The notes under the pieces are model-generated. The model was not told where the DNA came from. It saw only the letters and a program-made list of their open reading frames with translations, and ran no database searches. This document shows, piece by piece, positions 1,102-55,905 of a DNA stretch of 64,000 bases. The stretch comes from a virus: IMG/VR virus record IMGVR_UViG_3300047476_000639, positions 1-64,000 of that record; one strand, given 5' to 3'. Position 1 is the first letter of the stretch, and every line of letters starts with the position of its first letter. Both the position numbers and the translations under genes were made by a program.

Positions 1102-1965
1102 ATGAAAAAGTTCCGAGAATATATCACTGAAGAAATGATGCCTTATGCTCAAACCGAAAAAGGGTTTGTAGGTGTCGATAATGGTCCTGTTAGAGATAAC
1201 ATCAATATTCATTTAACTTCTATCACTGCTCGACCATACGCAACACCTTATCATGCTCTAGAAATGGTGCGTAAAGTTCTTGCACCATTTCATATCGGTC
1301 TGCCAGCAACAAACTTCTTGGCTGGTGATTCCGGCCATGAAGTTTTTGAGATCAATCAATTTGGTGAACGCATCGGCATGAAAAACAATGGTGATGTTGT
1401 CACCACAACAGGATCATCTTACTTTGTCTACTTTGAGTACTCAATGAATGATAAAGGTTCTTTTGATATATTCTCGGAAATTGTTAATAAAGAAGAGCTT
1501 GATGAACTTCTTGCCGATGTAGAAGATGAAATGGAAGAGGGTGACGAAGAGTATTACGACGATGATGTAGATGCTTCTGATTCTTACGATTCTTACAAAT
1601 CAGATAATAAAATAAATGAAGCAAAAGATTTTAAGAATGACTATGATCGTAACTGGAAGTATGTGAAGATGCATAATGCTGCTGCCAAGAAAGCAGGTGA
1701 GTACATAGATGATAAAAAGTTTGATAAAGCAAAGCTTAAAGTCAAGATGATGAAGCGTATCTCTAATAAGATTAGAGATCCTGATTCTGTTGATGAAGAC
1801 TATGATCTTGATTGGGCAAAAGAAACAAAACATACCAAAAACATTTTGTCTGGTGCAAGAAGAAAAGATGATAAGAAAAAGTGGAAAAGTTTTGTCAAAG
1901 ATGCTAACAAGAGAGCAGTAACAGGTATGTCTGGTAAAGCAGAGGGTGAAAAGCGCGAAAAGTAA
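1102..1965 (+). CDS. putative capsid-targeted internal protein with acidic central region
   Basis: N-terminus MKKFREYITEE resembles the T4 IPIII capsid targeting sequence; D/E-rich stretch; K-rich C-terminus. Confidence 0.5.
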   Translation: MKKFREYITEEMMPYAQTEKGFVGVDNGPVRDNINIHLTSITARPYATPYHALEMVRKVLAPFHIGLPATNFLAGDSGHEVFEINQFGERIGMKNNGDVVTTTGSSYFVYFEYSMNDKGSFDIFSEIVNKEELDELLADVEDEMEEGDEEYYDDDVDASDSYDSYKSDNKINEAKDFKNDYDRNWKYVKMHNAAAKKAGEYIDDKKFDKAKLKVKMMKRISNKIRDPDSVDEDYDLDWAKETKHTKNILSGARRKDDKKKWKSFVKDANKRAVTGMSGKAEGEKREK

Positions 1966-3163: not shown

Positions 3164-3952
3164 ATGATCACTAGAGAAATGCTTAAGAAGATTGCACCAA
3201 ACTCAAAAGAAGAAATCATTGGTCCTTTGGTTGGCTATCTCAACATGTACATGCCAAAATATGAAGTGAACAATTATCTACGTGTCTGTCATTTCATTGC
3301 ACAGGCGGCACATGAAGCGGCTTCGTTTAGAACACTAGAAGAATATGCATCAGGTGCGGCTTATGAAGGACGCAAAGATTTGGGTAACACACAACCCGGT
3401 GATGGCATTCGCTACAAGGGCCGTGGTATATTCCAGCTAACAGGTCGCGCCAACTATCGCACAATAGGTGCTAAGATAGGAAAAGATTTGGAGAATAATC
3501 CAAAACTTGCAGAAACACCAGAGATATCAGTATTGACCGCTCTTGAGTATTGGAAATCACGCAAGCTTAATCCTCTTGCAGATAAAGATGATGTGCTTGC
3601 TATTACGAAGAAGATCAATGGCGGCACTAATGGATTTGAAGATCGTAAGAAGTATCTCGCTAAAGCTAAGACTGTTATACCTAAAGATTTTTCATTCAAA
3701 GAATCAGAACCTGAAAGTCCTCCACCTCCTGTAGATCCTTTAGTGCCTTCAATCGTCGTGGCAAAACGCGGTGATGTGTCACCTTACATTGCTGATTTAC
3801 AGAACATGTTGATCAGAAAGGGTGCAAGACTTGCTAAAGACGGAAACTTTGGGCCAGCAACTGAAGCTGCTGTGAAAGAATTCCAGACAAAAAGCAAATT
3901 GCCTGTCACAGGTCAGATCGACACTGACACACTTAATCTGTTGATGGTGTAA
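3164..3952 (+). CDS. endolysin: GH19 chitinase-like lysozyme domain plus C-terminal peptidoglycan-binding domain
   Basis: GH19 signature GRGIFQLTGRANY and AAHEAASF; C-terminal PG_binding_1-like DGNFGPATEAAVKEFQ...LPVTGQID. Confidence 0.8.
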   Translation: MITREMLKKIAPNSKEEIIGPLVGYLNMYMPKYEVNNYLRVCHFIAQAAHEAASFRTLEEYASGAAYEGRKDLGNTQPGDGIRYKGRGIFQLTGRANYRTIGAKIGKDLENNPKLAETPEISVLTALEYWKSRKLNPLADKDDVLAITKKINGGTNGFEDRKKYLAKAKTVIPKDFSFKESEPESPPPPVDPLVPSIVVAKRGDVSPYIADLQNMLIRKGARLAKDGNFGPATEAAVKEFQTKSKLPVTGQIDTDTLNLLMV

Positions 3953-3953
3953 G

Positions 3954-4418
3954 ATGAAGACGCTCAAATCATTTCTTGAAGAAGCCATGACAACACCATA
4001 TGAAAATTTCTATGCAGGTGTAGAAAAAGGAAAATATGGTGATACTCATCGATATCATTTCTATGATCATAAGAATAGACCTTTTGCCGTTCAGATTTAC
4101 AACCGTACTGAAGGTATGACAAAAGGAAAAGCGGAAGTGTCGTTCGAAGATGAACACGGTTCAATAGGAACAACAGGCCAGTCCGGTAAACATGCTATGA
4201 GAATATTTTCAACAGTGAAAGATATCATGAAGAAACATGCAGATACCCATAAAGACATAGATCATTATGTCTTTTCTGCATTCAAGAATGAAAAAGATCC
4301 TGAAAACAAAGTAGATTCAAAAGCAAAACTATATTCAACTATCGCAAAGGCTCACGGCGGAGCTAAAACAGCAGAGACTGATTTTTTTCACAACTATAAA
4401 GTACCAATCAAGAGGTAA
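3954..4418 (+). CDS. putative capsid-targeted internal protein
   Basis: N-terminus MKTLKSFLEEA matches the T4 CTS pattern MKTYQEFIAE; TAAGATG overlap with the endolysin stop. Confidence 0.5.
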   Translation: MKTLKSFLEEAMTTPYENFYAGVEKGKYGDTHRYHFYDHKNRPFAVQIYNRTEGMTKGKAEVSFEDEHGSIGTTGQSGKHAMRIFSTVKDIMKKHADTHKDIDHYVFSAFKNEKDPENKVDSKAKLYSTIAKAHGGAKTAETDFFHNYKVPIKR

Positions 4419-4423
4419 AAATA

Positions 4424-4708
4424 ATGGAATCATGGATCAAGCAATATTGGAGACCTGCAATTGCATGGCAATATCTTGCTGTGTGTTTATTTGACTTTAT
4501 AATTTTTCCTGCTGCATTCATGTATCTCACAAAACAACCATGGGATCCAATCACTCTCAAAGAGGGTGGGTTCTATCATCTTGCTATGGCAGCGATTATC
4601 GGTGTTGCAGCATGGACAAGAGGACAAGAAAAGATACAGCGTATTACATTGGGTGACGAACTCTTGGAACGTACAACAACAACTCAGACACCTACAGGAA
4701 CAAAATGA
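4424..4708 (+). CDS. small membrane protein (possible holin)
   Basis: Two predicted hydrophobic helices; sits near the endolysin. Confidence 0.4.
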   Translation: MESWIKQYWRPAIAWQYLAVCLFDFIIFPAAFMYLTKQPWDPITLKEGGFYHLAMAAIIGVAAWTRGQEKIQRITLGDELLERTTTTQTPTGTK

Positions 4709-5463
4709 AAACATTCTTAGAATACCTAAAAGAAGAAGGTGTGCTTGATAGCATCGGCACAGGATTCAATCAGGTGCTTAATCCTATTCGTAGACAGTTA
4801 GGTGTAAAAACCGGTGAACTTCCTGCTGGCACCAAAGAAGTTGATTACTCTGCTATTGGCAATAAAGCTCTTAGTACATTTGACACTGCAATGTCTGCAT
4901 TTGGTGGTGCCGATCCCGGTAAGAAGAATATCGATAAACCTAAAAATGTTTCATCTAAAATTCAAGATAGAGTGCCTCAACAAATTCCAAGAAGTCCTCT
5001 AGATAAAGCACCAGAAAGACAAACATCTGTTGCATTCCAGAGACAATTATCACGCGATGTTGCTCCTCGTCCACAGTTTGGCCAGGATACCGCAATGAAG
5101 ATGTTGAAGTTTGAAAGAAAATTGAAAGCTGACATGAAGTCATTTGATGATGATATGAAGATGCGAAAAGCTGAGTTTGATATAAAGTTCAAAGCTGCAA
5201 TGGAAAAGAAGCAACCATCTAAAGCTTCTATTGGTGATACAGGAATCAAGAAGACTACAACAAGTCTTGTTAACAAGTCTCAGCTTGCACCGGTTGAAAA
5301 CCAGAAAGCATCTTCTGGTGGTTCATACAAGATCAAGGCAGGCGACAATCCAACAAAGATCGCTAAGGACTTAGGAATGACTTTGAAAGATTTAGAAGCG
5401 AAGAATCCAGGAATACTTAAGCGTTCTAAGAGATTGAAGATCGGCGGCACCGTTAATAGATAA
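4705..5463 (+). CDS. LysM-domain protein with CTS-like N-terminus
   Basis: N-terminus MKTFLEYLKEE; C-terminal LysM YKIKAGDNPTKIAKDLGMTLKDLEAKNP. Confidence 0.6.
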   Translation: MKTFLEYLKEEGVLDSIGTGFNQVLNPIRRQLGVKTGELPAGTKEVDYSAIGNKALSTFDTAMSAFGGADPGKKNIDKPKNVSSKIQDRVPQQIPRSPLDKAPERQTSVAFQRQLSRDVAPRPQFGQDTAMKMLKFERKLKADMKSFDDDMKMRKAEFDIKFKAAMEKKQPSKASIGDTGIKKTTTSLVNKSQLAPVENQKASSGGSYKIKAGDNPTKIAKDLGMTLKDLEAKNPGILKRSKRLKIGGTVNR

Positions 5464-25643: not shown

Positions 25644-26045
25644 ATGGCAAAGAGGCACTACAGGTCAAAACTAGAAAAGGTTATGCAAGAGAAGTGTGAA
25701 CTAAATTACGAAACAACGATTGAGGATTGTCAGAAATGGTTTAACATCCTCAATCGTGAACTCTTTGAGAACTCGCTGCCCAAAGTGAGTGAGATAGATA
25801 TAAGATGGCGCAGAGGCGCACATGCGTGGTATGATTATGATGAGACCCTTCCCGGCAACGGTACTGCAAGATTGCTCATGAACAGACGATACAAATCCAA
25901 AAAGTTTTTTATTGAAGTGTTAGCCCATGAAATGGTGCATCACTATCAATATACCAATAACGAAGCGGTGGGTCACGGCTCTTCGTTCTTAAAATGGCGT
26001 GACAAGTTTAATCAGAAAGGCTTGAACCTCGTAAAGGCTTATTAG
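25644..26045 (+). CDS. SprT-like zinc metallopeptidase domain protein
   Basis: HExxH motif VLAHEMVHHYQY in a SprT-like context. Confidence 0.5.
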   Translation: MAKRHYRSKLEKVMQEKCELNYETTIEDCQKWFNILNRELFENSLPKVSEIDIRWRRGAHAWYDYDETLPGNGTARLLMNRRYKSKKFFIEVLAHEMVHHYQYTNNEAVGHGSSFLKWRDKFNQKGLNLVKAY

Positions 26046-26046
26046 C

Positions 26047-26214
26047 ATGAAGTACAAAAAGAACCACTATGGAACTCATGAAGATTATGATGATGCAGAA
26101 TATGCGGATCTCAGAAAAGGTCAAAAGAGACGACCTATTCGCAACTGGACAAAAGCTTGGGTGGAACACGAAACCGAAGCAGATGCCGTAGACGATTTTT
26201 ACGTTCGGCGCTAA
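26047..26214 (+). CDS. hypothetical 55-aa protein (not in the ORF track)
   Basis: ATG two nt after the upstream stop; acidic and basic mix. Confidence 0.25.
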   Translation: MKYKKNHYGTHEDYDDAEYADLRKGQKRRPIRNWTKAWVEHETEADAVDDFYVRR

Positions 26215-26223
26215 ACCATTGAT

Positions 26224-26282
26224 TTGCAATAAGGAACTTTTTTGAAGAACCCTATTGCAATCTATTCCGGGTGTGCTATATT
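26224..26282 (+). promoter_or_regulatory. sigma70-like promoter (TTGCAA - 16 nt - TATATT) with an 8-bp inverted repeat TTGCAATA / TATTGCAA overlapping the -35
   Basis: Read directly from the sequence upstream of the GC-rich gene; the right repeat arm coincides with the -35 hexamer. Confidence 0.45.
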
Positions 26283-26314
26283 CTTCTCATCAACGAGACA
26301 GAGGAGACTACCGA

Positions 26315-26974
26315 ATGGCTATCACCCACATGGTTTCTGAGAAGTACGAAATGGTCGACGGCAAGTACACGAAGGTCGCCGAGGCCTACTCTGAGACGAT
26401 TGCTCATGGTTGTGTGCTTGAAACTGGCACCCGTTCGTGCCGTATCATGTCCGATGTCTGGGGTTCTGAGAAGTACGCGCTGTACTGGGACGCTGTTGAG
26501 AAGAAGCCTGTCATGGACATTCTCGACACTTGCGACTACAACTGGTACTGGGGCGACAAGGTTTCTGCCACTGTTGATGCTACTCCTGAAGTCAAGGAAG
26601 CGTATCGCCACTATCGCGTGAGCCGTCAGTTTGAGCGTATGCTTGAAGAGTCGCAGCATACTGCGAAGCAGATTGAGAAGGGTTGCGTTGCAAAGGTTAC
26701 TCGCGGCAAGACTGCTGTTGGTACTCAGGGCAAGGTAATCGCAGTGATCAAGGCCAGCTACGGCATGGGCTATCGCGCTTCTGTTGAGAACAAGCTTGGC
26801 ATTGCAACTTCTGATGTCACGTACAAGAAGGCACTTCCGAACGGCAAAGTGGTTGATGCACACAAGGACGTTGTGTGGGTTTGGGCCCGCAACTGTGTTC
26901 GTGTTGATATTGCTGAAGTCAACGAACATGAAGTGTGGCTTCAGGCTGAAAAGCATTTCCCCCGGGCTGCTTGA
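26315..26974 (+). CDS. hypothetical protein in the second GC-rich island
   Basis: ATG with gaggagac RBS; third-position G/C bias; the + strand is chosen over a 290-aa antisense ORF. Confidence 0.5.
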   Translation: MAITHMVSEKYEMVDGKYTKVAEAYSETIAHGCVLETGTRSCRIMSDVWGSEKYALYWDAVEKKPVMDILDTCDYNWYWGDKVSATVDATPEVKEAYRHYRVSRQFERMLEESQHTAKQIEKGCVAKVTRGKTAVGTQGKVIAVIKASYGMGYRASVENKLGIATSDVTYKKALPNGKVVDAHKDVVWVWARNCVRVDIAEVNEHEVWLQAEKHFPRAA

Positions 26975-27029
26975 CAGCAGCCCTAACTTCCTGTATAACA
27001 CTCTCATAGTCAACACGGAGACACACACA

Positions 27030-27266
27030 ATGACTGTTCGTTCTTTCAAGTCTAGCACCAGCTTCGACAAGTCTCTTGAACTTCTCATCACCGAAACTGA
27101 TGATGGTCGTAAGACGACCTCTGCATACAGCGGTTTCCGCACTCTCAAGGAAGCAGAAGACTTTGTTGAGTGGTGGGAAGACTTGTATAGCTGGGGTTAC
27201 ATGGGTTCTGCTAGTGTCTCTTCTGATTTGGTTGTTCACACTTCTCGTTATAACTCTTGCGATTAA
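27030..27266 (+). CDS. hypothetical protein
   Basis: ATG inside the GC-rich island; Trp-rich C-terminus. Confidence 0.4.
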   Translation: MTVRSFKSSTSFDKSLELLITETDDGRKTTSAYSGFRTLKEAEDFVEWWEDLYSWGYMGSASVSSDLVVHTSRYNSCD

Positions 27267-27276
27267 GGAGATTTGT

Positions 27277-27444
27277 ATGACCGTTGACAAGATCCGAGTT
27301 TTTGATTATCTTGAAGCTCTACGGCAATCAGGCATTACTAACATGTTTGGTGCTGCGCCCTATATCGAACGGGTATTTGATGTCCCGCGCAAGGAAGCTG
27401 TATCTCTTTTGGTCGAATGGATGGAGATTAAGTCAAATGGGTAA
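27277..27444 (+). CDS. hypothetical small protein
   Basis: ATG with aaggag RBS. Confidence 0.45.
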   Translation: MTVDKIRVFDYLEALRQSGITNMFGAAPYIERVFDVPRKEAVSLLVEWMEIKSNG

Positions 27445-27655
27445 GGTCAAGGACTGGTTGATGGAAATGGAATCGCATGTGTGGACTGCCATGGAAATTG
27501 GTATGCCCCGTGCAAATGTTTACCCGTATGTCTGTACTCAGATGCACGGTGCTTCTGAGCGTGATGTAGATAGCATCATCGATCAGATACAGAAACACTA
27601 TTATGGCTACACGTTTAACGAGAATGGAGAGATGAAGTATGTCACGAACGAGTAA
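27437..27655 (+). CDS. hypothetical small protein
   Basis: ATGGGTAA overlap with the upstream stop. Confidence 0.4.
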   Translation: MGKVKDWLMEMESHVWTAMEIGMPRANVYPYVCTQMHGASERDVDSIIDQIQKHYYGYTFNENGEMKYVTNE

Positions 27656-28106
27656 GCACGGTAAGAGGCCTGAATTCGTCGCACTTGAGCTTTTTGAGCG
27701 ACAGATCACCGTGACGCCAGCAGATGTAGATCATTATGTTGGAACAACAGGTTACGCATCGAAATATGTGTGCTTTCTGAAGCGTGACGGATACCAGTTT
27801 GAAACCAACAAGGACGGTCGGACAGTCGTGTCCTATGTCTATAAGGGAATGACTAAGACTGGTGTTAAGAAAGCTGCCACGGCTGCTCCTAAAGCGTCCA
27901 AGAAGGCTCCGGAGAAGAAGCCAAAGGTCGCAAAGGTCATTGCTAAGAAGGCTGCTCCGGTCAAGAAGCCCAAGTTTTCGGCTGAAGAAAAGATGCTCCG
28001 TGAACTGGACATGCTCCCTGAGAAGGACTTTAGCTCCAGTTCGTTCTCTATCGATTCCGAGTGGGACTCCGCTGATGGACTCGACGTTGCAACTCTGCTG
28101 GGTTAA
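27639..28106 (+). CDS. DNA-binding protein with histone H1-like lysine/alanine-rich tail
   Basis: AAPKASKKAPEKKPKVAKVIAKKAAPVKKPK repeats. Confidence 0.5.
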   Translation: MSRTSKHGKRPEFVALELFERQITVTPADVDHYVGTTGYASKYVCFLKRDGYQFETNKDGRTVVSYVYKGMTKTGVKKAATAAPKASKKAPEKKPKVAKVIAKKAAPVKKPKFSAEEKMLRELDMLPEKDFSSSSFSIDSEWDSADGLDVATLLG

Positions 28107-30181: not shown

Positions 30182-30439
30182 ATGATTTATTCATTTATAG
30201 ATACCGAAACTGAAGAAGAGTTCGAACTAGAAATGACCTATGATCAACTCAAGGCATTTCTAGAATCCAATCCAAGATTTAATCAAACGTTTAAGATGAA
30301 CGTAGTCGATCCTGTTGGCATCGGCGTAACAAAGCCACCTTCTGATTTCCAGAAGTATGTGCTTGGTAAAGTTGCTGCGGCACCTGGTGCCGATAAGTCT
30401 GCTATCAATCGCAGATGGAGTCACAAACGAGAGTGGTAA
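30182..30439 (+). CDS. hypothetical small protein
   Basis: ORF. Confidence 0.4.
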   Translation: MIYSFIDTETEEEFELEMTYDQLKAFLESNPRFNQTFKMNVVDPVGIGVTKPPSDFQKYVLGKVAAAPGADKSAINRRWSHKREW

Positions 30440-30517
30440 AACACCAAAGAAGACGAGTTTCAAAAGAGAGCGGTCGTGGAAGCGATGCGCTCTCTTTTGC
30501 TTTACAAGGAGTACACA

Positions 30518-31230
30518 TGTCTAAGAAGCCTAAGAACAAAGCGCAAGCAAACAATAACAACGAAAAGAAGGCTGCACATTTCGAGTTGAGACATATTAAA
30601 CCTCTCACTCCAAATCAAGAAAAAGTCTTTACAGCATATCGTCAAGGTTATCACTTGATGCTTCACGGATTTGCCGGTACAGGCAAAACATTCTGCGCTC
30701 TTTACTTAGCATTAAATGAGTTATTGTCTAATGAGTCCATATACAACAAGATCGTTATCATTAGATCGGTTGTACCATCTAGAGATATGGGCTTTTTGCC
30801 CGGTTCAATGAAAGAAAAGATACAGGTCTATGAAGAGCCGTATCGTGAAATCTGTGATAGCTTATTTGGTCGTGGTGACGGGTATGACATACTGAAGATG
30901 AAGGGTATTGTACATTTCACTACAACTTCTTATCTCCGTGGTCTGACATTCAACAATGCTATTGTTATACTAGATGAAAGCCAGAACTTGTCGTTCCAAG
31001 AGTGTGACACAGTTCTGACAAGAATGGGTGATGAGAGCCGATTGATTGTTTGTGGTGATTTCAGACAGACAGACTTAAACAAGCCTCATGAGAAAGAGGG
31101 TGTTACTCAATTGATGCGAATTACCAATCGTATAAATACCTTTCAGCATATTGAGTTTGAGAAAGAAGATATCGTTCGCTCAGGCTTGGTCAAATCTTAC
31201 ATCATCCAAAAACACGAATTAGGACTATAA
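30518..31230 (+). CDS. phoH: PhoH-like ATPase
   Basis: Walker A LHGFAGTGKTF; PhoH block IVILDESQNLSFQECDTVLTRMGDESRLIVCGD; start at the ATG with caaggag RBS. Confidence 0.8.
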
Positions 31231-31232
31231 CA

Positions 31233-32567
31233 ATGACAAACAAGTACCTCATAGAGAGAGTATCAGATTATCTCGACAAGATGGGCAAGTACACTCTCAA
31301 TGAGGACTTGCTAATGGAAGAAGACATGCCGGATCAAAGTGAAGAACAGAGGGCCGAATGGATGCCTCCTGTTCTTCATGATTTCATGTTTCATTTGAGC
31401 GGTCCTAGTGACCCTCACGGAAACAAGAAAAAGGTTCTCATGGAAGAAGTTCTTGATGAGGTGACATTGATTGATACGACAAAAGGTATCGTTCCAATGG
31501 CACACAAGAACATGAACCTACCAAAGACCAGTGCTATCATCAATAAGACTGAAGAAGAGCGCGGCGGTAGAGAAGAAAATCTCCACAAGAAGATCAATGC
31601 AGGATTCAAGAAAGCTGATGCTGAAATGAGTTCTGAAGATAGAAAGACAAGAAGAGCTAAACTAAGAGAAGCAAGACAGACATTTGCTTCATTCGCGCAG
31701 GCGCGAGGCTTCAAGAGTAGAACCGCACCAAAGCTTATGGGCGGAAATATGAAGACTGAAAAATCTTCAGGTGAAGGCGTTCTTACAACAGGACTCAATC
31801 TTGCGCCACATGCTACAGCAGGACTTCATGGCTTCGATACTTGTCCAAAAGCATCAAAAGATTGTAGAAAAAATTGCCTAGGTACAGAAGCAGGCGGTAA
31901 TCGCCAGTATCCAGATGCCGCTTTGGCAGCTAAGACTTTAAGAACACACTTTGTAGCCCATCATCCTGAACATGCTGCAAGAATTATGGATGCTGAGATT
32001 GAAGCACATAAGAAAGCAGCAAAGAAAAAGGGTATGATTCCTGGTGTTCGTCTTAATGTTACATCTGACATTTCTTGGGAACATCATGCACCAAAGATGT
32101 TTGAGCGTCACAAGGATGTCCAGTTTTATGACTACACCAAGATGCCAAACAGAGTTATGAGACAGTATGAGCCAAAGGTGGAAGGCAGTCATTTCAATAA
32201 GGCGGGTCATCCTGCCAACTATCACCTAACACTTTCTCATACAGGCACAGGACACGCGGAATCAAATGATGCTGATGTGGTAAAGGTGCTTGAAAAGGGT
32301 GGTGTCGTTGCGTCTGTATATCAGCGCGGCAAGAAGAACAAGAAGCCAACTGCATATGAAGATGTGAAGACAGGTAAGAGATATCCTGTTGCAAACGGCG
32401 ACGATGACGACAACACGTTTGATCGTCACAACACTCTCGGCAAAACAGAAGGTTCACCTAGCCATGGTGTCGTTTCTGGTTTACAATTGAAGGGTGTTAA
32501 GAATGAAGACGCCGGAGTATTTGCTAATAAAGTAGATGATGACGGAATCGTTCGCATCAATAAGTGA
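31233..32567 (+). CDS. hypothetical protein (444 aa)
   Basis: Long ORF, charged, with a Cys cluster CPKASKDCRKNC. Confidence 0.45.
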   Translation: MTNKYLIERVSDYLDKMGKYTLNEDLLMEEDMPDQSEEQRAEWMPPVLHDFMFHLSGPSDPHGNKKKVLMEEVLDEVTLIDTTKGIVPMAHKNMNLPKTSAIINKTEEERGGREENLHKKINAGFKKADAEMSSEDRKTRRAKLREARQTFASFAQARGFKSRTAPKLMGGNMKTEKSSGEGVLTTGLNLAPHATAGLHGFDTCPKASKDCRKNCLGTEAGGNRQYPDAALAAKTLRTHFVAHHPEHAARIMDAEIEAHKKAAKKKGMIPGVRLNVTSDISWEHHAPKMFERHKDVQFYDYTKMPNRVMRQYEPKVEGSHFNKAGHPANYHLTLSHTGTGHAESNDADVVKVLEKGGVVASVYQRGKKNKKPTAYEDVKTGKRYPVANGDDDDNTFDRHNTLGKTEGSPSHGVVSGLQLKGVKNEDAGVFANKVDDDGIVRINK

Positions 32568-32573
32568 GTTGAT

Positions 32574-33005
32574 ATGCCAAGATTAGTATTGATTACAGGC
32601 GGCTTTGATCCTGTACATTCAGGTCATATAGAGTATATCAATGCCGCCAAGTCTCTCGGAGACTATCTGTTTATTGGGTTAAACAGTGATGATTGGCTTG
32701 CTCAGAAAAAGGGCAAGCCGTTCATGCCTTGGCATGAGAGACATATGATACTTGCAAACTTAAGGAGTGTTGATGATGTATTTGCTTTCAATGATAACGA
32801 TGGTACTGCTATCGATGCTATTAGGACTATTCGTGAAGCGAACCCTGATTGCACGATCATCTTTGCAAACGGTGGCGATAGAACGAAAGAAAACATACCA
32901 GAGATGAACTGTGGTGTTGATGATATAGAATTTGTGTTTGGTGTTGGTGGTTCAGATAAGAAAAACAGTTCTAGTTGGATACTCAATAAATGGAATGAAA
33001 AATGA
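32574..33005 (+). CDS. cytidylyltransferase-like nucleotidyltransferase
   Basis: Rossmann-like VLITGGFDPVHSGH (HxGH motif). Confidence 0.55.
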   Translation: MPRLVLITGGFDPVHSGHIEYINAAKSLGDYLFIGLNSDDWLAQKKGKPFMPWHERHMILANLRSVDDVFAFNDNDGTAIDAIRTIREANPDCTIIFANGGDRTKENIPEMNCGVDDIEFVFGVGGSDKKNSSSWILNKWNEK

Positions 33006-33535
33006 AGACACTAAAACAATTCCTTAAAGAAGCGTTTGATGCTGAAGCAATCAAGATTGCCAATTCTACATCACGAACATCAGGCGCAGTTGGTGCCAAA
33101 GCTATTACACCTCGTTATGTTGAATCCATTGCAAACGCGAAGCAAACCGTTTTAGACTTCGGTTCTGGTAAAGATGCTGCACATGCAAAACGTTTGCGTG
33201 AAAAAGGACTGAATGTCACTGCACATGAGTTTGGTGATAATCAAAACGAGAACCATGATCCTGACGCATTATCTAGACAATATGATCATGTTTATGCATC
33301 TAATGTTTTGAATGTACAGTCTAGCAAGCCGATGATGCATGAGACACTTAATCAGATACACCGAGCCGTCAAGAAAGGCGGAAGCTTTACCGGTAATTTC
33401 CCAATGTCACCACGCAAAGCAGATGATATTGATGCTGATCATGTACATCAGGAATTAGAGAAGAGATTTGAAACAGTGAAGCGTGTTGGTGGATCAAAGA
33501 AGGCGCCGCTGTTCCATGCGACGAATCCAAAATGA
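33002..33535 (+). CDS. SAM-dependent methyltransferase-like protein with CTS-like N-terminus
   Basis: N-terminus MKTLKQFLKEA; motif I VLDFGSGKD; YDHVYASNVLNV. Confidence 0.5.
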   Translation: MKTLKQFLKEAFDAEAIKIANSTSRTSGAVGAKAITPRYVESIANAKQTVLDFGSGKDAAHAKRLREKGLNVTAHEFGDNQNENHDPDALSRQYDHVYASNVLNVQSSKPMMHETLNQIHRAVKKGGSFTGNFPMSPRKADDIDADHVHQELEKRFETVKRVGGSKKAPLFHATNPK

Positions 33536-33729
33536 AGCACTTCATTAAGTATCTTGATGATAAGAATGCTGAGAAAGAAAAAGACATAGAGATGAAGATG
33601 AATGCGGCTATCACAGAGAACGATAAGACTATGTATGCCGCACATGATTATTATGGTAGTCCAAAAAAGTTGGTGTTCAAGCGCAAGTCACCAAGCTCTT
33701 CAGGTGGTAGCGCAGATGGTGGTGAATAA
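33532..33729 (+). CDS. hypothetical small protein
   Basis: ATGA overlap. Confidence 0.35.
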   Translation: MKHFIKYLDDKNAEKEKDIEMKMNAAITENDKTMYAAHDYYGSPKKLVFKRKSPSSSGGSADGGE

Positions 33730-33944
33730 TGTATCTTGATCCATGGATGATAGTTGTACTCATTCTAGCTTTCGGTATTTGCTCCTTGATCAGTAGAAGA
33801 CAAGGTGTTTATTTCGGAGTTGTTAACACTCTTCGAGGATTACACGAACAGAAAATTATCAAGATCGATACGAATGGTATAGTAAGTCCTTACAAGACAC
33901 TCGAAACGGTAAAAAAGAGAAAAAGAAAAGATGCTAAGTTTTAA
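33729..33944 (+). CDS. small membrane protein
   Basis: Hydrophobic helix IVVLILAFGICSLI. Confidence 0.4.
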   Translation: MYLDPWMIVVLILAFGICSLISRRQGVYFGVVNTLRGLHEQKIIKIDTNGIVSPYKTLETVKKRKRKDAKF

Positions 33945-34782
33945 GACATACTTGACTGAAGAGAAGAAGAAGAAAAAGAAGCAGCGTGAAGAATCCAAGC
34001 ACTATAATAAAGTCTTCATGGGTAAATCAGACATTGAAGCTGATGAGACTAAGAAGAACTATAACAAAGTCTTCATGGGCAAAAAGAAGATTGATGAAGA
34101 TATTCTTCCTGAACCTCACATTGGCCGTCCTTCAGGTGCGATTGAAACTCTACACAAGAAACTGTCAAGACATTACAAGTTTGGTAAAAAGCTTAAGCTG
34201 AGAGAAGAGCCTAAGCTTGATGATCCGCACGGCGATGAAAAGGTTGGCATTAGACGTTACACCGGTATTGCGTATAAACACATAAACAAAGCACTATATA
34301 AAGGTGATACCAGTCTTCTTTTACCAGAACATCAAGATGCAATGCAGCAAGTGATGGGCGCACAGAGACGCCATAAGACTCCTGTAGCCATGACTGTTCA
34401 CACAGGTATCAAGCGTGATCCAAGACAGATGGAAAAACACGAAGGTCAAATCAAAATGGAGATGCCGGCATTCACCAGCACTTCATTAGATGTGGATCAA
34501 GCTAAAGAGTTTGCACGACCATCAAACGAAGGAACTGGCAATCCCAACACATATGAAAATCATGTCGTACACATTGATGTACCAAAAGGTTCTCATGGTG
34601 TGTATGTTGCTCACCATAGTCAAATGCCAGATGAAAAAGAATTCATTCTTCATCCGGGCGCACGGGTGCATTTACATCCTGAACCAACTCATGTTGAAGA
34701 AAAAGATGATGGGTGGGGTGATACAACGAGAACATATCACTGGCGAGGTAAACTTGTACACGATGGTGTTAAAGACGTTTGA
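33931..34782 (+). CDS. ADP-ribosyltransferase (R-S-E class, Alt/Mod or exoenzyme-like) with CTS-like N-terminus
   Basis: YTGIAYKHINKALY (R-region), FTSTSLD (STS motif), EKEFILHPGA (ExE motif); N-terminus MLSFKTYLTEE; tandem NYNKVFMGK repeats. Confidence 0.65.
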   Translation: MLSFKTYLTEEKKKKKKQREESKHYNKVFMGKSDIEADETKKNYNKVFMGKKKIDEDILPEPHIGRPSGAIETLHKKLSRHYKFGKKLKLREEPKLDDPHGDEKVGIRRYTGIAYKHINKALYKGDTSLLLPEHQDAMQQVMGAQRRHKTPVAMTVHTGIKRDPRQMEKHEGQIKMEMPAFTSTSLDVDQAKEFARPSNEGTGNPNTYENHVVHIDVPKGSHGVYVAHHSQMPDEKEFILHPGARVHLHPEPTHVEEKDDGWGDTTRTYHWRGKLVHDGVKDV

Positions 34783-34836
34783 CACAAACTATTCCGTAAC
34801 ATATAATTATGGTCAAACTGAAATAACGGAAACATT

Positions 34837-35466
34837 ATGAAAAGATATGTGATTGGTGATGTGCATGGTTGCTATGATGAACTGTGCGAACTGTTTGAGA
34901 AGATTGAGAAGCACCACGGCGGTTATGACTACAAGCTGATTTTTGTTGGTGACTATGTTGATCGTGGACCAAAATCAAAAGATGTTGTAGACTTCATTAT
35001 GAAGATGCAGAAGCGCGGCCATGTAGCTCTCATGGGCAATCATGAAGATATGCTTATCGCTGGTGAATACATGTATGCTGCTGAAACAATTGTCAGCTTT
35101 GGTGGTTTTCGCGGCCATTATATACCCGATTGGGCAATGAATTGGATGAAGGCACTGCCAAAGTATTATGAAGATGATACAATCATTGTGGCTCATGCTG
35201 GTGCTAATCCTGCATTTCCAATGAATGAACAAACAGATACTATGCTCTTGTGGTTACGATATCAGCCGCACCATAATGCACACATGGGTAAGCATTTCTA
35301 TCACGGACATACTCCACACATAGGTAAGATTGAGCAAGCAGAGGATCGCACAAATGTAGATACTGGTTGTGTGTATGGCGGACATTTGACGGCCGCTATT
35401 GTAGGAGATGATGGCAAACCTGAAGGTTTCATTCAGGTGCCACACAAGAACAGTGCGTATGCATAA
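34837..35466 (+). CDS. Ser/Thr protein phosphatase, PPP family (lambda PPase-like)
   Basis: GDVHGC, GDYVDRG, GNHE motifs. Confidence 0.75.
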   Translation: MKRYVIGDVHGCYDELCELFEKIEKHHGGYDYKLIFVGDYVDRGPKSKDVVDFIMKMQKRGHVALMGNHEDMLIAGEYMYAAETIVSFGGFRGHYIPDWAMNWMKALPKYYEDDTIIVAHAGANPAFPMNEQTDTMLLWLRYQPHHNAHMGKHFYHGHTPHIGKIEQAEDRTNVDTGCVYGGHLTAAIVGDDGKPEGFIQVPHKNSAYA

Positions 35467-35482
35467 AGCATATATACTGTAG

Positions 35483-35800
35483 TTATCGTTGAAGGAAAAC
35501 GAAAAACACTGAGGACTGGGGGGCGGTACCCCACGCCTCCACCACGAACACACTGAGAGTCTGACCAGCAGATCATGGTGAACTATGCAATGGGAATGTT
35601 CACTTGCTTGGTGTGTTCTTGATGGGGGCGAACTAGGATCGACTGAGTGTAGAATAGTTGACTGGAGATAACCGTAGGCGACTACGTACAAGCGCAAAAC
35701 TCTAAATGCAAACGATAACGTTCCTGCATATAAGGCTTACGCTCTAGCAGCGTGATACCTGTGGGTATGGCTCCACCTAGAAACAGAACGGGCCACTTTA
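35483..35800 (+). ncRNA. ssrA: permuted two-piece tmRNA (ssrA): acceptor piece ending ...CGCCUCCACCA, then intervening hairpin, then coding piece starting GGGGGCGAACUAGGAUCGAC with tag ORF (A)NDNVPAYKAYALAA-stop
   Basis: The 5' end matches the universal tmRNA start GGGGnnGAuucuGGAUUCGAC. Upstream, T-arm TGGGG-GGCGGTA-CCCCA is followed by CGCCTCC-ACCA, complementary to GGGGGCG with a G3-U70 wobble. cucuaaauGCAAACGAU... parallels the E. coli resume region; the tag ends ALAA. Confidence 0.6.
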
Positions 35801-36314: not shown

Positions 36315-36869
36315 ATGACAAACACGTTAACCGATAACGACACTTTTGCGGTATCGACGCTGAAAGACAAACTCAAGTCTAATCTGAAAGAAGTTCTTGG
36401 TGACATAAAGTTTTCTTCATACTTCAACCCAGAACAGCTTGTTATTGCAGGTGGTTGCTTCACATCTCTGTTTCATAGCGATACTGTTAAAGACTATGAT
36501 TTCTTCATTCTGAACAGCACACATGAACAAGACAAGCTTTTTGAGAAGACCATATTGAAGCATGGAGATATGTCTTATATCAAGAACAAGAACATCAAGG
36601 CAACTCACACGAACACATCAAATGCTGTGCAGTGGATTCTTACCTCTTATAAGAACAGGAAAGAACTCATCGATAGCTTTGATATGCTTCACTGCACGAT
36701 CTCTTATGTGCCGCATGAAGATGCCTTGTATGTGAGTCCTCTTACTCTTCATTGCATCAAGAATAAGATCATGCGGCCAAACCTGAAAAGGAAGCCTGAA
36801 GAGATTGAATATTGGCGTATTGAAAAGTTTAGGGTAAGGGGCTGGAAGAATGAGATTGTCGGCGTATGA
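36315..36869 (+). CDS. hypothetical protein
   Basis: ORF; overlaps the next gene by 20 nt. Confidence 0.4.
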   Translation: MTNTLTDNDTFAVSTLKDKLKSNLKEVLGDIKFSSYFNPEQLVIAGGCFTSLFHSDTVKDYDFFILNSTHEQDKLFEKTILKHGDMSYIKNKNIKATHTNTSNAVQWILTSYKNRKELIDSFDMLHCTISYVPHEDALYVSPLTLHCIKNKIMRPNLKRKPEEIEYWRIEKFRVRGWKNEIVGV

Positions 36870-37461
36870 TACATTCTGTCTTTATCTGGCACTGAAAAAT
36901 CACTTTTCAAGAGACAGTTACGATTTCTTCAAGTACAATGGTAAGACGCATGTGAATAAAGAAACATTCCTCAATCGCAGAGACCGACTACAGTTTCAGC
37001 GGCTCTCAAAGAGGTATGATGCTGATCAGATGCGGGATTTCTTTATTGCAAACTTTCTACACGACGAAAGCATTTGGGTTGGTAATCTTCTTGATGACAA
37101 TTCTGATGAACGCTATAATGAGTATATGAAGAGGAAGCAGTCCCTTTCATATGTGTTCAAGAACGAGCTTGATAAAATTTTAGATGATGTAAATGGTGAT
37201 ATCAAAGCTCTGTTCAAACCACATGATGGAACTCTTCCTCTTCTAACTGCTCACTACCAACATGAGGCATCGCTAGAAACACTGGCGATACTCGACTACT
37301 TCGTAGACTACTTCAACAGATATGATGATCGATACAAAGATGATTATATGTGGAGTAAGACACGAAAGAGGTGCAAGAAGCTTTTCCCTTTCATTGAGTT
37401 TGATAAAAATAAAATGAAAGAATTGCTTAAAGAGAAGTTGAATGCGCCTATATACTCTTGA
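36850..37461 (+). CDS. helicase loader, T4 gp59-like
   Basis: FCLYLALKNHF...YDFFKYN and RRDRLQFQRLSKRY...IWVGNL parallel T4 gp59 YKLYLMIKQHM...YDVIKYN and RRDKYFFQKLSEKY...AWIGDI. Confidence 0.7.
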   Translation: MRLSAYDTFCLYLALKNHFSRDSYDFFKYNGKTHVNKETFLNRRDRLQFQRLSKRYDADQMRDFFIANFLHDESIWVGNLLDDNSDERYNEYMKRKQSLSYVFKNELDKILDDVNGDIKALFKPHDGTLPLLTAHYQHEASLETLAILDYFVDYFNRYDDRYKDDYMWSKTRKRCKKLFPFIEFDKNKMKELLKEKLNAPIYS

Positions 37462-37520: not shown

Positions 37521-38444
37521 ATGACTAACTTTGCATCCCTTAAGAAGACTTCTTCTGACATTTCCCGCCTCACTAAAGAAATCGAAAAGATCAATAACCC
37601 AGAGTCCAGCACTGAGTATGAAGAAGACACGCGCTTCTGGAAGCTCACTCGCGGTAAGGACGGAAACGGTTCTGCTGTCATTCGCTTTCTTCCCGGTCCT
37701 GCGGTTGATGGTGATGATGCTCTTCCTTGGGTACGTTACTTTGACCACTGGTTCAAGGGTCCCACTGGTAAGTGGTACGTAGAGAATTCTCTGACGACCT
37801 TCGGTAAGAAGGATCCCGTCTCTGAGTTCAACAGCACCCTTTGGGGTGATTCCTCAATCAAGGACGAATCCTTCCGTCCTCTTGAGCGCAAGCAGGCGCG
37901 TGAACAGAAGCGCAGGCTTCATTATGTTTCTAACATCTATGTTGTCTCTGATCCTGCCAATCGTGAAAACGAAGGCAAGGTGTTCCTGTTCAAGTATGGT
38001 AAGAAGATTTTTGATAAGATCACTCTTGCTATGAAGCCTGAGTATGAAGGTGATCAGGCCATTGTTCCCTTCGATTTGTGGAAGGGTGCAAACTTCAAGC
38101 TTCGCTGCCGCACCGTAGCTGGTTATCCTAACTATGATCAGTCTGTCTTCGATGGTGTCTCTGCACTCCATGATGACGATGCTGTGCTTGAGAAGATTTG
38201 GAAGTCTGAGTTCTCTTTGAAGGAGTTCATCGATCCTAAGAACTACAAGTCTTACGATGAACTGAAGAAGCGCCTGAACGAGGTGCTTGCTTTGAATGAT
38301 CAGATTACGGACTCTGTGACTTCTTCAAGGCCCGTTGATCCGGTTACTTCGTCAAAGCCGACCTTCGACGGACCAAAGACAAAGAAGTATGATGATCCTG
38401 CGCTTGATGATGATGAAGATTACTTCAAGAACCTGATTGACTAA
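37521..38444 (+). CDS. single-stranded DNA-binding protein, T4 gp32-like
   Basis: GNGSAVIRFLPGP versus T4 GNGQAVIRFLPSK; ENEGKVFLFKYGKKIFDKI versus ENEGKVFKYRFGKKIWDKI; acidic C-terminal tail. Confidence 0.85.
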   Translation: MTNFASLKKTSSDISRLTKEIEKINNPESSTEYEEDTRFWKLTRGKDGNGSAVIRFLPGPAVDGDDALPWVRYFDHWFKGPTGKWYVENSLTTFGKKDPVSEFNSTLWGDSSIKDESFRPLERKQAREQKRRLHYVSNIYVVSDPANRENEGKVFLFKYGKKIFDKITLAMKPEYEGDQAIVPFDLWKGANFKLRCRTVAGYPNYDQSVFDGVSALHDDDAVLEKIWKSEFSLKEFIDPKNYKSYDELKKRLNEVLALNDQITDSVTSSRPVDPVTSSKPTFDGPKTKKYDDPALDDDEDYFKNLID

Positions 38445-54579: not shown

Positions 54580-55905
54580 ATGGCTTCAATTTTTTCTGAA
54601 AACCTTAAGATTTACAATGCGGAACAATTCAAAAAGTCTGTATCTGATCAAGGTCCAACAAATATCTACCTGACAATTGGAAAAGTAAGAGCTTGGTCAA
54701 ACGATGCGGCACCACCTCAGGCCAACTCTTCTGTTGGTGCATTTAATGATGTATGGCAGAATATGATTGCAGCTAAACTCATTAGTGGTGGTGATGTTCG
54801 TCACGGTATCAGAAGAATTGATTGGTCGGCCAACACAGAATACAATCAATATCATCATTGCACCTGTTCTCTACTTTATGATAGCACAGATTTCTATGTA
54901 CTGACTACAGATTGGAATATCTATAAGTGTTTGTCTAATGCAATTGGGTCACTATCGACAGTGATGCCAACTCAGACAATTACAGATGCTTCTGTTGAAG
55001 AACAAGACGGATATATCTGGAAGTATATGTACACGCTGACAGCCGAAGAGCGCATTAGATTTTTGACAAATGACCATATGCCAGTCAAAACACTCTTGGT
55101 TGATAACAACACTCTACAATGGCAGGTTCAAGACGATGCAAAAGTTGGCTCTATCGATATCATCAGAGTTGATAATGTAGGATCAGGTTATACAAATGCC
55201 AACAGCATCACAGTAACTATTACTGGTGATGGTACCGGTGCATCAGCAAGAGCAAAGGTCAATACAATATCAAATACGATCTCTGCTATTATCATGGTCA
55301 ATCATGGACTAAACTATACAACAGCCAATGTTTCTATCTCAGACACAGGCAGCGGCGTTGGTGCTGAAGCTTCTGTGGTGTTTCCGCCTCCCGGCGGCCA
55401 TGGTTCAGATGCGATGCGTGAACTTGGCGGTTCATATTTGATACTTAATCCAAGACTAAAATCATCAGAAGACGGTAAAATATCCATAAATAACGAGTAT
55501 AGACAGATTGCGATTATTCAAGATCCGATAGTTGCAGGTACAGGTAATGTTGCTTCAAATACAACATACTCTCAAGTGCTTAGACTAACAATGAGCCCCG
55601 GTTCAATTGATTTCTTAGAAGATGAGTATGTATATCAAGGCGGTTCTTTAGCTACTGCAACGTTCAAAGGTTTGGTTGTTGATTTTGACACTAGCAACAA
55701 CATACTGCAATTGACAGATACTTTTGGTGATGTGACTTCTTCTCTGCTTCAAGGCGCCAATAGCGGCGCGGCCCGATTTGTTGAGTCCATCACAGAAAAA
55801 GAATTAAGACCATACAGCGGCAACTTGCTGTATATTGATCAGATATCACCTATTGAAAGAGCGGCTGATCAAACAGAAGATTATAAGATAGTGTTGAAGT
55901 TTTAA
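54580..55905 (+). CDS. baseplate / tail-fibre structural protein
   Basis: 441 aa; DNVGSGYTNANSITVTITGDGTGASA repeat module. Confidence 0.45.
   Translation: MASIFSENLKIYNAEQFKKSVSDQGPTNIYLTIGKVRAWSNDAAPPQANSSVGAFNDVWQNMIAAKLISGGDVRHGIRRIDWSANTEYNQYHHCTCSLLYDSTDFYVLTTDWNIYKCLSNAIGSLSTVMPTQTITDASVEEQDGYIWKYMYTLTAEERIRFLTNDHMPVKTLLVDNNTLQWQVQDDAKVGSIDIIRVDNVGSGYTNANSITVTITGDGTGASARAKVNTISNTISAIIMVNHGLNYTTANVSISDTGSGVGAEASVVFPPPGGHGSDAMRELGGSYLILNPRLKSSEDGKISINNEYRQIAIIQDPIVAGTGNVASNTTYSQVLRLTMSPGSIDFLEDEYVYQGGSLATATFKGLVVDFDTSNNILQLTDTFGDVTSSLLQGANSGAARFVESITEKELRPYSGNLLYIDQISPIERAADQTEDYKIVLKF

Follow-up and report, generated by a model that had tools for sequence, protein, structure and literature searches.

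We analyzed a 64,000-nucleotide (nt) stretch of viral DNA (positions 1 to 64,000 of IMG/VR record IMGVR_UViG_3300047476_000639; hereafter, the window), which is part of the genome of an uncultured T4-like myophage and encodes PhoH (30415-31230), gp59 (36850-37461), and gp32 (37521-38444), with baseplate and tail genes in a block starting at 38.5 kb. The closest proteins to its gp32 are those of cyanomyoviruses, at ~54% identity. Between phoH and the gp59/gp32 genes lie four tightly packed, partly overlapping open reading frames (ORFs) on the plus strand, the first and last of which encode a methyltransferase-like protein and an ADP-ribosyltransferase (ART), respectively. Both genes are part of a variable cassette of internal-protein-type genes, and both products begin with a ten-residue tag that, in the reading we hold to be fairly probable, is a capsid targeting sequence of the T4 IPI/IPII/IPIII type, by which the two enzymes would be packed into the head of the phage, to be injected into its host. 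A preliminary description of this DNA had proposed both coding regions; both ORFs are real, with two small ORFs in between, and the strings quoted in that description are all present at their positions:

33002-33535, plus strand: tagged methyltransferase-like gene, 177 amino acids (aa), from the ORF, Pfam, AlphaFold, and Foldseek; isoelectric point (pI) of the mature protein ~9.3
33532-33729, plus strand: tagged small protein, 65 aa, starting MKHFIKYLDD (Asp10); conserved in the related loci L002 and L004
33729-33944, plus strand: untagged 71-aa protein, hydrophobic in an N-terminal segment and basic in its tail; L002 and L004 have homologues in the same position
33931-34782, plus strand: tagged ART gene, 283 aa, of an arginine-less Alt/VIP2/C3 clade, from PF03496, the structure model, and hhalign; pI of the mature protein ~9.3

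A megablast search of positions 32500-35500 against 50,697 deposited phage genomes yielded no close DNA match. Upon searching the same records with tblastn, we found no match for the methyltransferase and three other tagged ORFs, and a single weak match for the ART, to a MuF-type "minor capsid component."

A shared N-terminal tag

Using the pattern M-x-x-[FLIY]-x-x-[FY]-[LI]-x-[ED] at the protein N-terminus, we found tags on six window ORFs, compared with 0.08 in shuffled sequence; from the motif's internal rate, 0.038 N-terminal tags would be expected among 94 window ORFs (Poisson P ~4e-12). The common N-terminus that the preliminary description had likened to a capsid targeting sequence is therefore real and far beyond chance. 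Besides the 65-aa ORF, the tagged genes are:

33002-33031, plus strand: methyltransferase tag MKTLKQFLKE, with predicted L-x-E cleavage before Ala11 (pattern match; likeness to T4 ipII/ipIII)
33931-33960, plus strand: ART tag MLSFKTYLTE, with predicted L-x-E cleavage before Glu11 (pattern match; conserved in orthologues)
1102-1965, plus strand: tagged ORF MKKFREYITE, 287 aa, acidic, directly adjoining a DUF7207 gene
3954-4418, plus strand: tagged ORF MKTLKSFLEE, 154 aa, pI 9.2, immediately 3' of the endolysin gene (3164-3952)
4705-5463, plus strand: tagged ORF MKTFLEYLKE, 252 aa, pI 10.0, with a weakly LysM-like C-terminus

The last three are grouped around the endolysin gene and a holin-like gene (4424-4708): Two flank the endolysin gene, and the third lies ~1.2 kb upstream of it. 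In T4, ipII and ipIII adjoin the lysozyme gene e.

The resemblance to T4 extends to single residues. T4 ipII and ipIII start MKTYQEFIAE/A (the slash marks the cut), and ipI starts MKTFKEF...ITE/A, that is, MKTFKEFTSTTTPVSTITE/A. Ten residues of such a tag suffice for loading foreign proteins into the T4 head, and in the IPIII tag, residues 4 and 7 are the main determinants of targeting, and residues 8 and 10 those of processing (PMC9026906, PMC8442874). The prohead protease gp21 cuts after L/I-x-E, and an Asp at position 10 blocks cleavage while targeting is kept (PMC9026906). All six window tags carry a hydrophobic or aromatic residue at position 4 (Leu in the methyltransferase, Phe in the ART, Phe or Leu in the other four), Phe or Tyr at position 7 (Phe in the methyltransferase, Tyr in the ART), and Ile or Leu at position 8, while position 10 is Glu in five of them and Asp in the 65-aa ORF. 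The predicted gp21-type sites read L-K-E/A in the methyltransferase and L-T-E/E in the ART. As with the T4 internal proteins, the mature proteins are mutually unrelated and mostly basic (clearly so in four of the six, pI 9.2 to 10), and they are encoded at hypervariable loci, some copies of which adjoin an endolysin gene. The T4 internal proteins differ in being small and nonenzymatic (IPI* inhibits GmrSD), whereas the window tag is a predicted one and its cargo includes two recognizable enzymes.

We found the tag to behave as a separable module. It precedes six unrelated proteins in the window and other cargos in loci L004 and L011, and untagged homologues of the methyltransferase start where residue 11 or 12 of the tagged protein aligns. 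Two of these untagged homologues were looked up and belong to non-T4 phages, namely a phage with an integrase and YorF and a 363-kb jumbo phage; the methyltransferase family seems to have acquired the tag when it entered T4-like genomes. A shared promoter or leader DNA as the source of the common N-terminus was rejected, since the 60 nt upstream of the six genes are unrelated, and the conservation accordingly lies in the peptide. Within the ART family, the strict pattern occurs in 50 of 128 single-domain members; most of the other N-termini are IPI-like (MKRFKEF..., MKSFKDFIKN), and a few are near-identical to T4 (MKTYKDFIAES, MKTYKQFMAET).

An ADP-ribosyltransferase clade without the beta-1 arginine

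The ADP-ribosyltransferase fold and the Alt-type homology that had been proposed for the 283-aa protein are supported by Pfam, by the predicted fold, and by profile alignment to T4 Alt. With 45.2 bits, the protein passes the PF03496 (ADPrib_exo_Tox) cut-off of 23.4. We found 22 relatives, all metagenomic, among 5.8 billion proteins, and an AlphaFold model based on an alignment of relatives (predicted local distance difference test score, pLDDT, 85.9; predicted template modeling score, pTM, 0.82) matched Certhrax, Plx2A, C3bot, Vip2, CDTa, and iota Ia in Foldseek (probability 1.00, E 8e-11 and weaker), as well as phage ARTs including Alt of Aeromonas phage phiAS5. Among PDB sequences, the profile matched CDTa, Vip2, Certhrax, Vis, and iota (E 1e-11 to 1e-9). 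With T4 genes taken from NC_000866, hhalign aligned the family profile to residues 411-592 of T4 Alt (94.4%, E 8.8e-8), placing FTSTS (181-185) and E235-K-E237 on the STS and EME of Alt; the Y-x(8)-N helix motif aligns as well. Against ModA and ModB, the same profile gave 1% each, with short local alignments only, and orthology to either was rejected on this ground.

Although the window phage and T4 are both T4-like myophages with a homologous catalytic domain in these proteins, we also rejected orthology to Alt, because the catalytic domain alone aligns and the locus differs. Alt has 682 aa with a long N-terminal part, which the window ART lacks; its N-terminus is not an internal-protein-type tag, whereas that of the window ART is; and alt lies between genes 54 and 30 in T4, whereas the window gene lies between phoH and gp59/gp32. 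Alt, which ADP-ribosylates RNA polymerase, is itself packaged, and gp21 trims both its ends (PMC9026906). The analogy with T4 head-packaged proteins that had been drawn for this locus is supported, while a reading of the ART as an orthologue of Alt is not.

The clade is large: In a profile search of 1.84 billion cluster representatives, 227 proteins reached E <= 1e-30 with the family profile, corresponding to at least 227 clusters at 50% identity. Conservation was evaluated in an alignment of 129 single-domain ARTs, consisting of the window protein, the matches from the 5.8-billion-protein search, and the single-domain proteins among the best 150 profile matches. The ART gene contains the following features:

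34000-34083, plus strand: two YNKVFMGK copies, 19 residues apart; family-wide motif Y-x-K-V-F-x-G-K or h-F-x-G
34090-34098, plus strand: I54-D-E56, a conserved [LIV]-x-E and candidate second protease site (family alignment)
34258-34299, plus strand: helix motif YTGIAYKHINKALY, with near-invariant Y110 and N119 (family alignment, hhalign to Alt)
34396-34407, plus strand: beta-1 VHTG, with Thr158 in the place of the catalytic Arg (alignments to Alt, ModA, ModB, Lmo0066, and CDTa)
34471-34485, plus strand: STS motif FTSTS; Ser183 in 129 of 129
34633-34641, plus strand: ExE motif EKE; Glu235 in 125 of 129 and Glu237 in 129 of 129

The preliminary description had credited the ART with all three hallmarks of the R-S-E enzymes. 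STS and ExE are indeed in place, while the third is missing: The supposed R-region, YTGIAYKHINKALY, contains no arginine and aligns to the T4 Alt helix IREYVGSGYVDINNALL, not to the catalytic beta-1 Arg. What aligns to that Arg in Alt (LYRS), ModB (LYRG), ModA (LWRG), and Lmo0066 (LYRG) is Thr158 of the window ART, and the Arg pair of CDTa (VYRRSG) falls as an insertion at the VHTG point. Across the alignment, 71 of the 129 proteins have Ser at position 158, 53 have Thr, and 3 have Ala; none has Arg. Asn119, by comparison, is found in all 129 and Tyr110 in 127, and position 214, which aligns to the second Arg of CDTa that binds nicotinamide adenine dinucleotide (NAD), is Lys, His, or Arg in 95. 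The clade signature is [YHF]-[ST]-G ... STS ... ExE, with an own C-terminal strand W-x3-L-V-H-D-G-V. Going by its sequence, the window ART is a member of the Alt/VIP2/C3 superfamily that belongs to an arginine-less clade. Its best structural and profile matches, the toxins C3, Vip2, iota Ia, CDTa, and Certhrax, share STS and ExE/QxE with it, but all of them have the beta-1 Arg (VYR...) where the window clade has [YHF]-[ST]-G, and the clade adds the C-terminal strand, the N-terminal tag, and the repeat region.

An activity like that of the arginine-specific toxins, to which the preliminary description had compared the protein, can accordingly not be assumed, as the catalytic Arg is absent across the clade. 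The strict conservation of STS and ExE argues for a working active site and, because the beta-1 Arg is Ser or Thr across the clade, the donor is probably bound in a modified way. In a more speculative reading, which we rate as doubtful and return to below, the donor might be NAD-capped RNA (compare RNAylation by ModB) or some other dinucleotide, or the conserved N-terminal Y-x-K-V-F-x-G-K strand might contribute a basic residue. Alternatively, the protein may be ART-like and not transfer ADP-ribose at all, acting instead as an NAD+ binder, as an NAD-glycohydrolase, or as a defense-inhibiting internal protein like T4 IPI*, each of which would be compatible with packaging. The complete lack of Arg at position 158, exactly where the Arg of Alt, ModA, ModB, Lmo0066, and CDTa falls, speaks for this alternative, as does the hypervariable cassette, which is what would be expected in an arms race. 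Against it, STS, ExE, Asn119, and Tyr110 are near-invariant down to ~30% identity, as in a conserved active site (an NADase would need the same pocket too), and the position of the second NAD-binding Arg of CDTa has mostly stayed basic. On balance, we regard a nontransferring protein as unlikely, though as an alternative that deserves to be taken seriously.

The tandem repeat noted in the preliminary description is real, with HYNKVFMGK at 34000-34026 and NYNKVFMGK at 34057-34083, which are identical in 24 of 27 bases. The first copy is modeled as a strand (10-residue block, mean pLDDT ~88). After the repeats, the column of residues 54-56 has [LIV] in 108 and Glu in 93 of the 115 nongap family sequences, and a possible cut here would remove a Lys-rich stretch together with both YNKVFMGK copies. 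In the speculative reading mentioned above, the Y-x-K-V-F-x-G-K strand could also be a pro-segment, with cleavage by the prohead protease switching the enzyme on. This second-cleavage reading is weakened by a short "WEHPFSG" subgroup (MKTLKSIME/RWEHPFSG...), which has L-x-E in the tag only and would keep its h-F-x-G motif after cleavage. Separately, the tag of the ORF at 3954 is followed by a Y-E-N-F-Y-A-G motif similar to the ART's YNKVFMGK repeat.

Long relatives were also seen. Among the best 150 profile matches, 32 are at least 480 aa long, many of them with 2 to 10 tandem ART domains of the arginine-less clade (P0144-P0154, P0156-P0164, P0169, P0170, P0201, P0254, P0271, and others); P0144 has 2377 aa and nine such domains. 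Some of these multidomain proteins have tag-like N-termini (MLVPSFTSYITE/A, MKKTFKEFLQE). A divergent member, P0235, matched a protein of Stenotrophomonas phage DLP_6, which was set aside: With its canonical Arg (HVFRS) and its lack of an internal-protein-type tag, the DLP_6 protein is an ordinary Alt-like ART outside the arginine-less clade.

The methyltransferase and the variable cassette

For the protein at 33002-33535 (METHYLTRANSFERASE, 177 aa), the class I S-adenosylmethionine (SAM) methyltransferase fold that had been read from its motifs is supported by Pfam, by the model, and by Foldseek. It scores 34.4 bits for Methyltransf_12 (cut-off 30) and 30.6 bits for Methyltransf_23 (cut-off 27), and its AlphaFold model (pLDDT 85.4) matches many class I methyltransferases bound to SAM or S-adenosylhomocysteine, among them CysG, cg3271, UbiG, RPA2492, and TehB, with probability 1.00, E 2e-7 to 1e-5, and 11 to 17% identity. 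A profile search against PDB sequences gave nothing significant. The family has at least 154 homologues, and both motifs named in the preliminary description are present:

33149-33175, plus strand: motif I, VLDFGSGKD, in which the family keeps Gly54 and Gly56 invariant
33293-33316, plus strand: beta-4 motif YASNVLNV; S100-N-V-L-N104 invariant

In an alignment of 33 homologues, L-D-x-G-x-G and S-N-V-L-N are invariant (motif I reads L-D-F-G-x-G-K in the family), as are two family-specific motifs, A-N-x-T-S-R near the N-terminus and N-x-P-x-S-P-R-K. The acidic residue that ends beta-2 lies in a [HYW]-[ED]-[FI]-G after this strand and is E76 in the window protein. The Rossmann fold, motif I, and the beta-4 motif are thus those of small class I methyltransferases (Methyltransf_12/23; CysG, UbiG, TehB, cg3271), from which the window family differs in its low identity, its phage-borne and tagged state, and its own invariant motifs.

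Phage methyltransferases are commonly anti-restriction enzymes, and the window protein is basic (pI 9.3), which would suit an enzyme that shields the injected phage DNA or RNA by methylating it. Its 177-residue sequence, by contrast, contains no [DNS]PP[YFW], PC-, or C5-type motif and no target-recognition domain, for which the alignment leaves no room; a DNA methyltransferase was rejected given that the catalytic motifs are absent. The nearest folds, moreover, are those of small-molecule and natural-product methyltransferases, and neither this protein nor the ART has a match in NCBIfam or PADLOC. We consider such protection very improbable, and our best guess for the substrate is a host protein or a small molecule.

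Comparison with related phages revealed that the content of the cassette varies. L002, from a 165.8-kb contig, keeps the order of the window: PhoH is followed by a large protein and a nucleotidyltransferase, then by the methyltransferase, the small tagged protein, and the membrane protein, and lastly by the ART and a phosphatase. In L004, a tagged 143-aa protein (MKTFKQHLNE/A) and a second tagged ART (MKTFKKFVID) take the place of the methyltransferase, and in L003, two ARTs stand in tandem. The ART of L006 lies three genes upstream of a DUF7207 gene, the same kind of gene that directly adjoins the tagged window ORF at 1102-1965. In L011 and L012, a tagged methyltransferase occurs elsewhere, with other tagged ORFs nearby and no ART neighbor. 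The locus, in short, behaves like a hyperplastic internal-protein locus.

In L001, the ART and the methyltransferase form one 472-aa ORF (P0012), joined by ...VKDLKE-MRTLKDKLIE/SAKGLKEVFDPEAVKIANSTSR, so that the linker of the fusion is a retained tag-like segment with an L-I-E site. Similar C-terminal extensions occur in P0011 (KNKLLE/K) and P0014 (KDKLLE/A). An obligatory pairing of the two enzymes was rejected, because the methyltransferase occurs alone in L011 and L012 and the ART alone in L003, L004, and L006. The fusion nevertheless suggests that both enzymes are functionally linked, though their pairing is not constant.

Several observations concern the surroundings of the cassette. It is preceded, at 31233-33005, by a GP88-family protein (444 aa, PF17338) and by a nucleotidyltransferase of 143 aa with a HIGH motif; the latter is RfaE domain II-, TagD-, or NMNAT-like and below all equivalog cut-offs. 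The same pair precedes the cassette in L004, and in L002 the nucleotidyltransferase does so too, next to a large protein with no recorded Pfam family. In an unrelated phage locus, L008, an untagged methyltransferase likewise has a GP88 gene in its vicinity. The tagged 143-aa protein of L004 (6428-6859) has no Pfam match, and its C-terminal half, KQGNGTSALEHL..., is by sequence reading faintly similar to the acetyl-CoA-binding motif of acetyltransferases. After the cassette follows an ApaH/PrpE/NinI-like metallophosphatase gene (34837-35466), likewise in L002 and L004, and then, in an ORF-free gap, a permuted two-piece transfer-messenger RNA (tmRNA) gene of the alphaproteobacterial type (35437-35797, plus strand; Rfam RF04321, 118.8 bits, gathering cut-off 47; RF01849, 88.5 bits, gathering cut-off 50), for which ARAGORN gave the tag peptide ANDNVPAYKAYALAA. 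The tmRNA is kept in four related loci (L001 9899-10246, L002 9605-10014, L003 2622-2975, and L004 9587-9946), and hints at an alphaproteobacterial host. Farther away, the GC content rises locally to 0.476 from ~0.41 at 26000-28000, coinciding with a 270-aa minus-strand ORF (26276-27088) in an otherwise plus-strand block.

Expression timing and virion delivery

Packaging in the T4 manner would call for late expression, and we examined the sequence for promoters. Two sites frame the run of genes that contains the cassette:

31131-31138, plus strand: TATAAATA (CGTATAAATAC), resembling a T4-type late promoter and located 95 nt ahead of the gene that opens the co-directional run 31233-34782
34779-34807, plus strand: TTGACA-17-TATAAT, a perfect sigma-70 promoter located at the ART gene's 3' end; the next unit, with the phosphatase gene (34837-35466), starts here

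The TATAAATA sequence occurs four times in the window. Two copies stand 28 to 32 nt before baseplate or tail genes (44049 and 54580), a third lies inside a small ORF upstream of 62394, and the site at 31131 shares its 11-mer CGTATAAATAC with the copy before the structural gene at 54580. We did not accept the site at 31131 as proof of late transcription, as it is phoH coding sequence (N-R-I-N-T-F), and its conservation in L002 and L004 is ambiguous because the PhoH protein may explain it. In L001 (7860-8000) and L003 (150-295), which represent a second sub-lineage, a conserved block upstream of the ART gene contains a perfect TTGACA-17-TATAAT followed by ATAAATA, the latter 38 to 41 nt before the ART start codon, an arrangement that suggests dual early and late transcription.

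Several of these data weigh against delivery with the virion. The window genes overlap or abut their neighbors and have no late promoter of their own, the only nearby TATAAATA upstream lying within phoH, 1.9 kb from the methyltransferase gene and 2.8 kb from the ART gene, and they sit in a long co-directional cluster with genes of the early or middle type (phoH ... gp59, gp32). The perfect sigma-70 promoter before the ART in L001 and L003 fits early expression. Some relatives have weak tags (e.g., MKIIKKLMKN in P0012), and a gp21 homologue lies outside the 64-kb window. For the ART as an injected enzyme, the absence of the catalytic Arg from the clade counts as well: In C3, iota toxin, and other R-S-E enzymes, loss of the beta-1 Arg usually cripples activity.

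The same layout could be explained if both proteins were early, cytoplasmic enzymes in the manner of ModA and ModB that are not packaged, with the N-terminus serving translation initiation, stability, or localization. The gene cluster, the missing late promoter, and the sigma-70 promoter directly before the ART in relatives fit this explanation, and untagged methyltransferase homologues are found among small early-type genes of other phages. It accounts poorly, however, for a tag that fits the four mapped T4 positions and ends in the gp21 motif, that is a discrete ten-residue addition in T4-like contexts, and that is conserved as a peptide where the upstream DNA of the six genes is not shared. 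Furthermore, the ATAAATA stands upstream of the ART in L001 and L003, and the catalytic domain is Alt-like, not ModA/B-like (hhalign 94% versus 1%). T4 ipI also has an early-type promoter and is packaged, so that such a promoter does not exclude packaging. We judge an early cytoplasmic role to be unlikely.

Virion delivery of both enzymes is the best reading. The sequence itself establishes the folds, family membership, and motifs, the tag with its modularity, the fusion, and the variability of the cassette, while late expression, packaging, cleavage, injection, catalysis, and targets are inferred. In the proposed course, the tag would bind the scaffolding core of the assembling prohead, and a gp21-type prohead protease would cut both proteins after Glu10. 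The basic mature enzymes would be kept with the DNA inside the head and reach the host upon infection, where the Alt-like ART domain would use NAD+ or a related donor to ADP-ribosylate host targets and the methyltransferase would methylate a host protein or a small molecule. This proposed route, loading by a short cleavable tag, differs from that of MuF/portal-ART fusions and polyvalent proteins (Iyer et al. 2022, PMC9503650), which rely on fusion to a structural domain; where the ART matched the PHROG families "head maturation protease" and "virion structural protein," the matches arise from fusions of the MuF/portal-ART type. A further-reaching proposal, which we rate as decidedly doubtful, is that the [YHF]-[ST]-G/STS/ExE clade forms a distinct class of head-delivered ARTs, in which the loss of Arg reflects another donor or another way of holding it and which would act as a two-enzyme kit with a co-injected, sometimes fused, methyltransferase.

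Head-packaged phage ARTs such as T4 Alt are already established, as is the capsid targeting sequence, and surveys predict that head-packaged ARTs are common in myophages (PMC9503650). What is new here, as far as sequence can tell, are natural tagged enzymes and a large, uncultured clade of tagged ARTs without the Arg, together with a methyltransferase family whose tag seems to be an acquisition made in T4-like phages and a fusion of both enzymes, which points to a functional link between them. The clade, with its strict STS and ExE and never the "essential" Arg, constitutes a natural test of the role of this residue. The T4 capsid targeting sequence has been known from small, nonenzymatic internal proteins and has been exploited for loading foreign proteins; the loci described here suggest that natural T4-like phages load real enzymes by the same ten-residue tag, which would allow injected proteins of uncultured T4-like phages to be predicted by a simple sequence rule.

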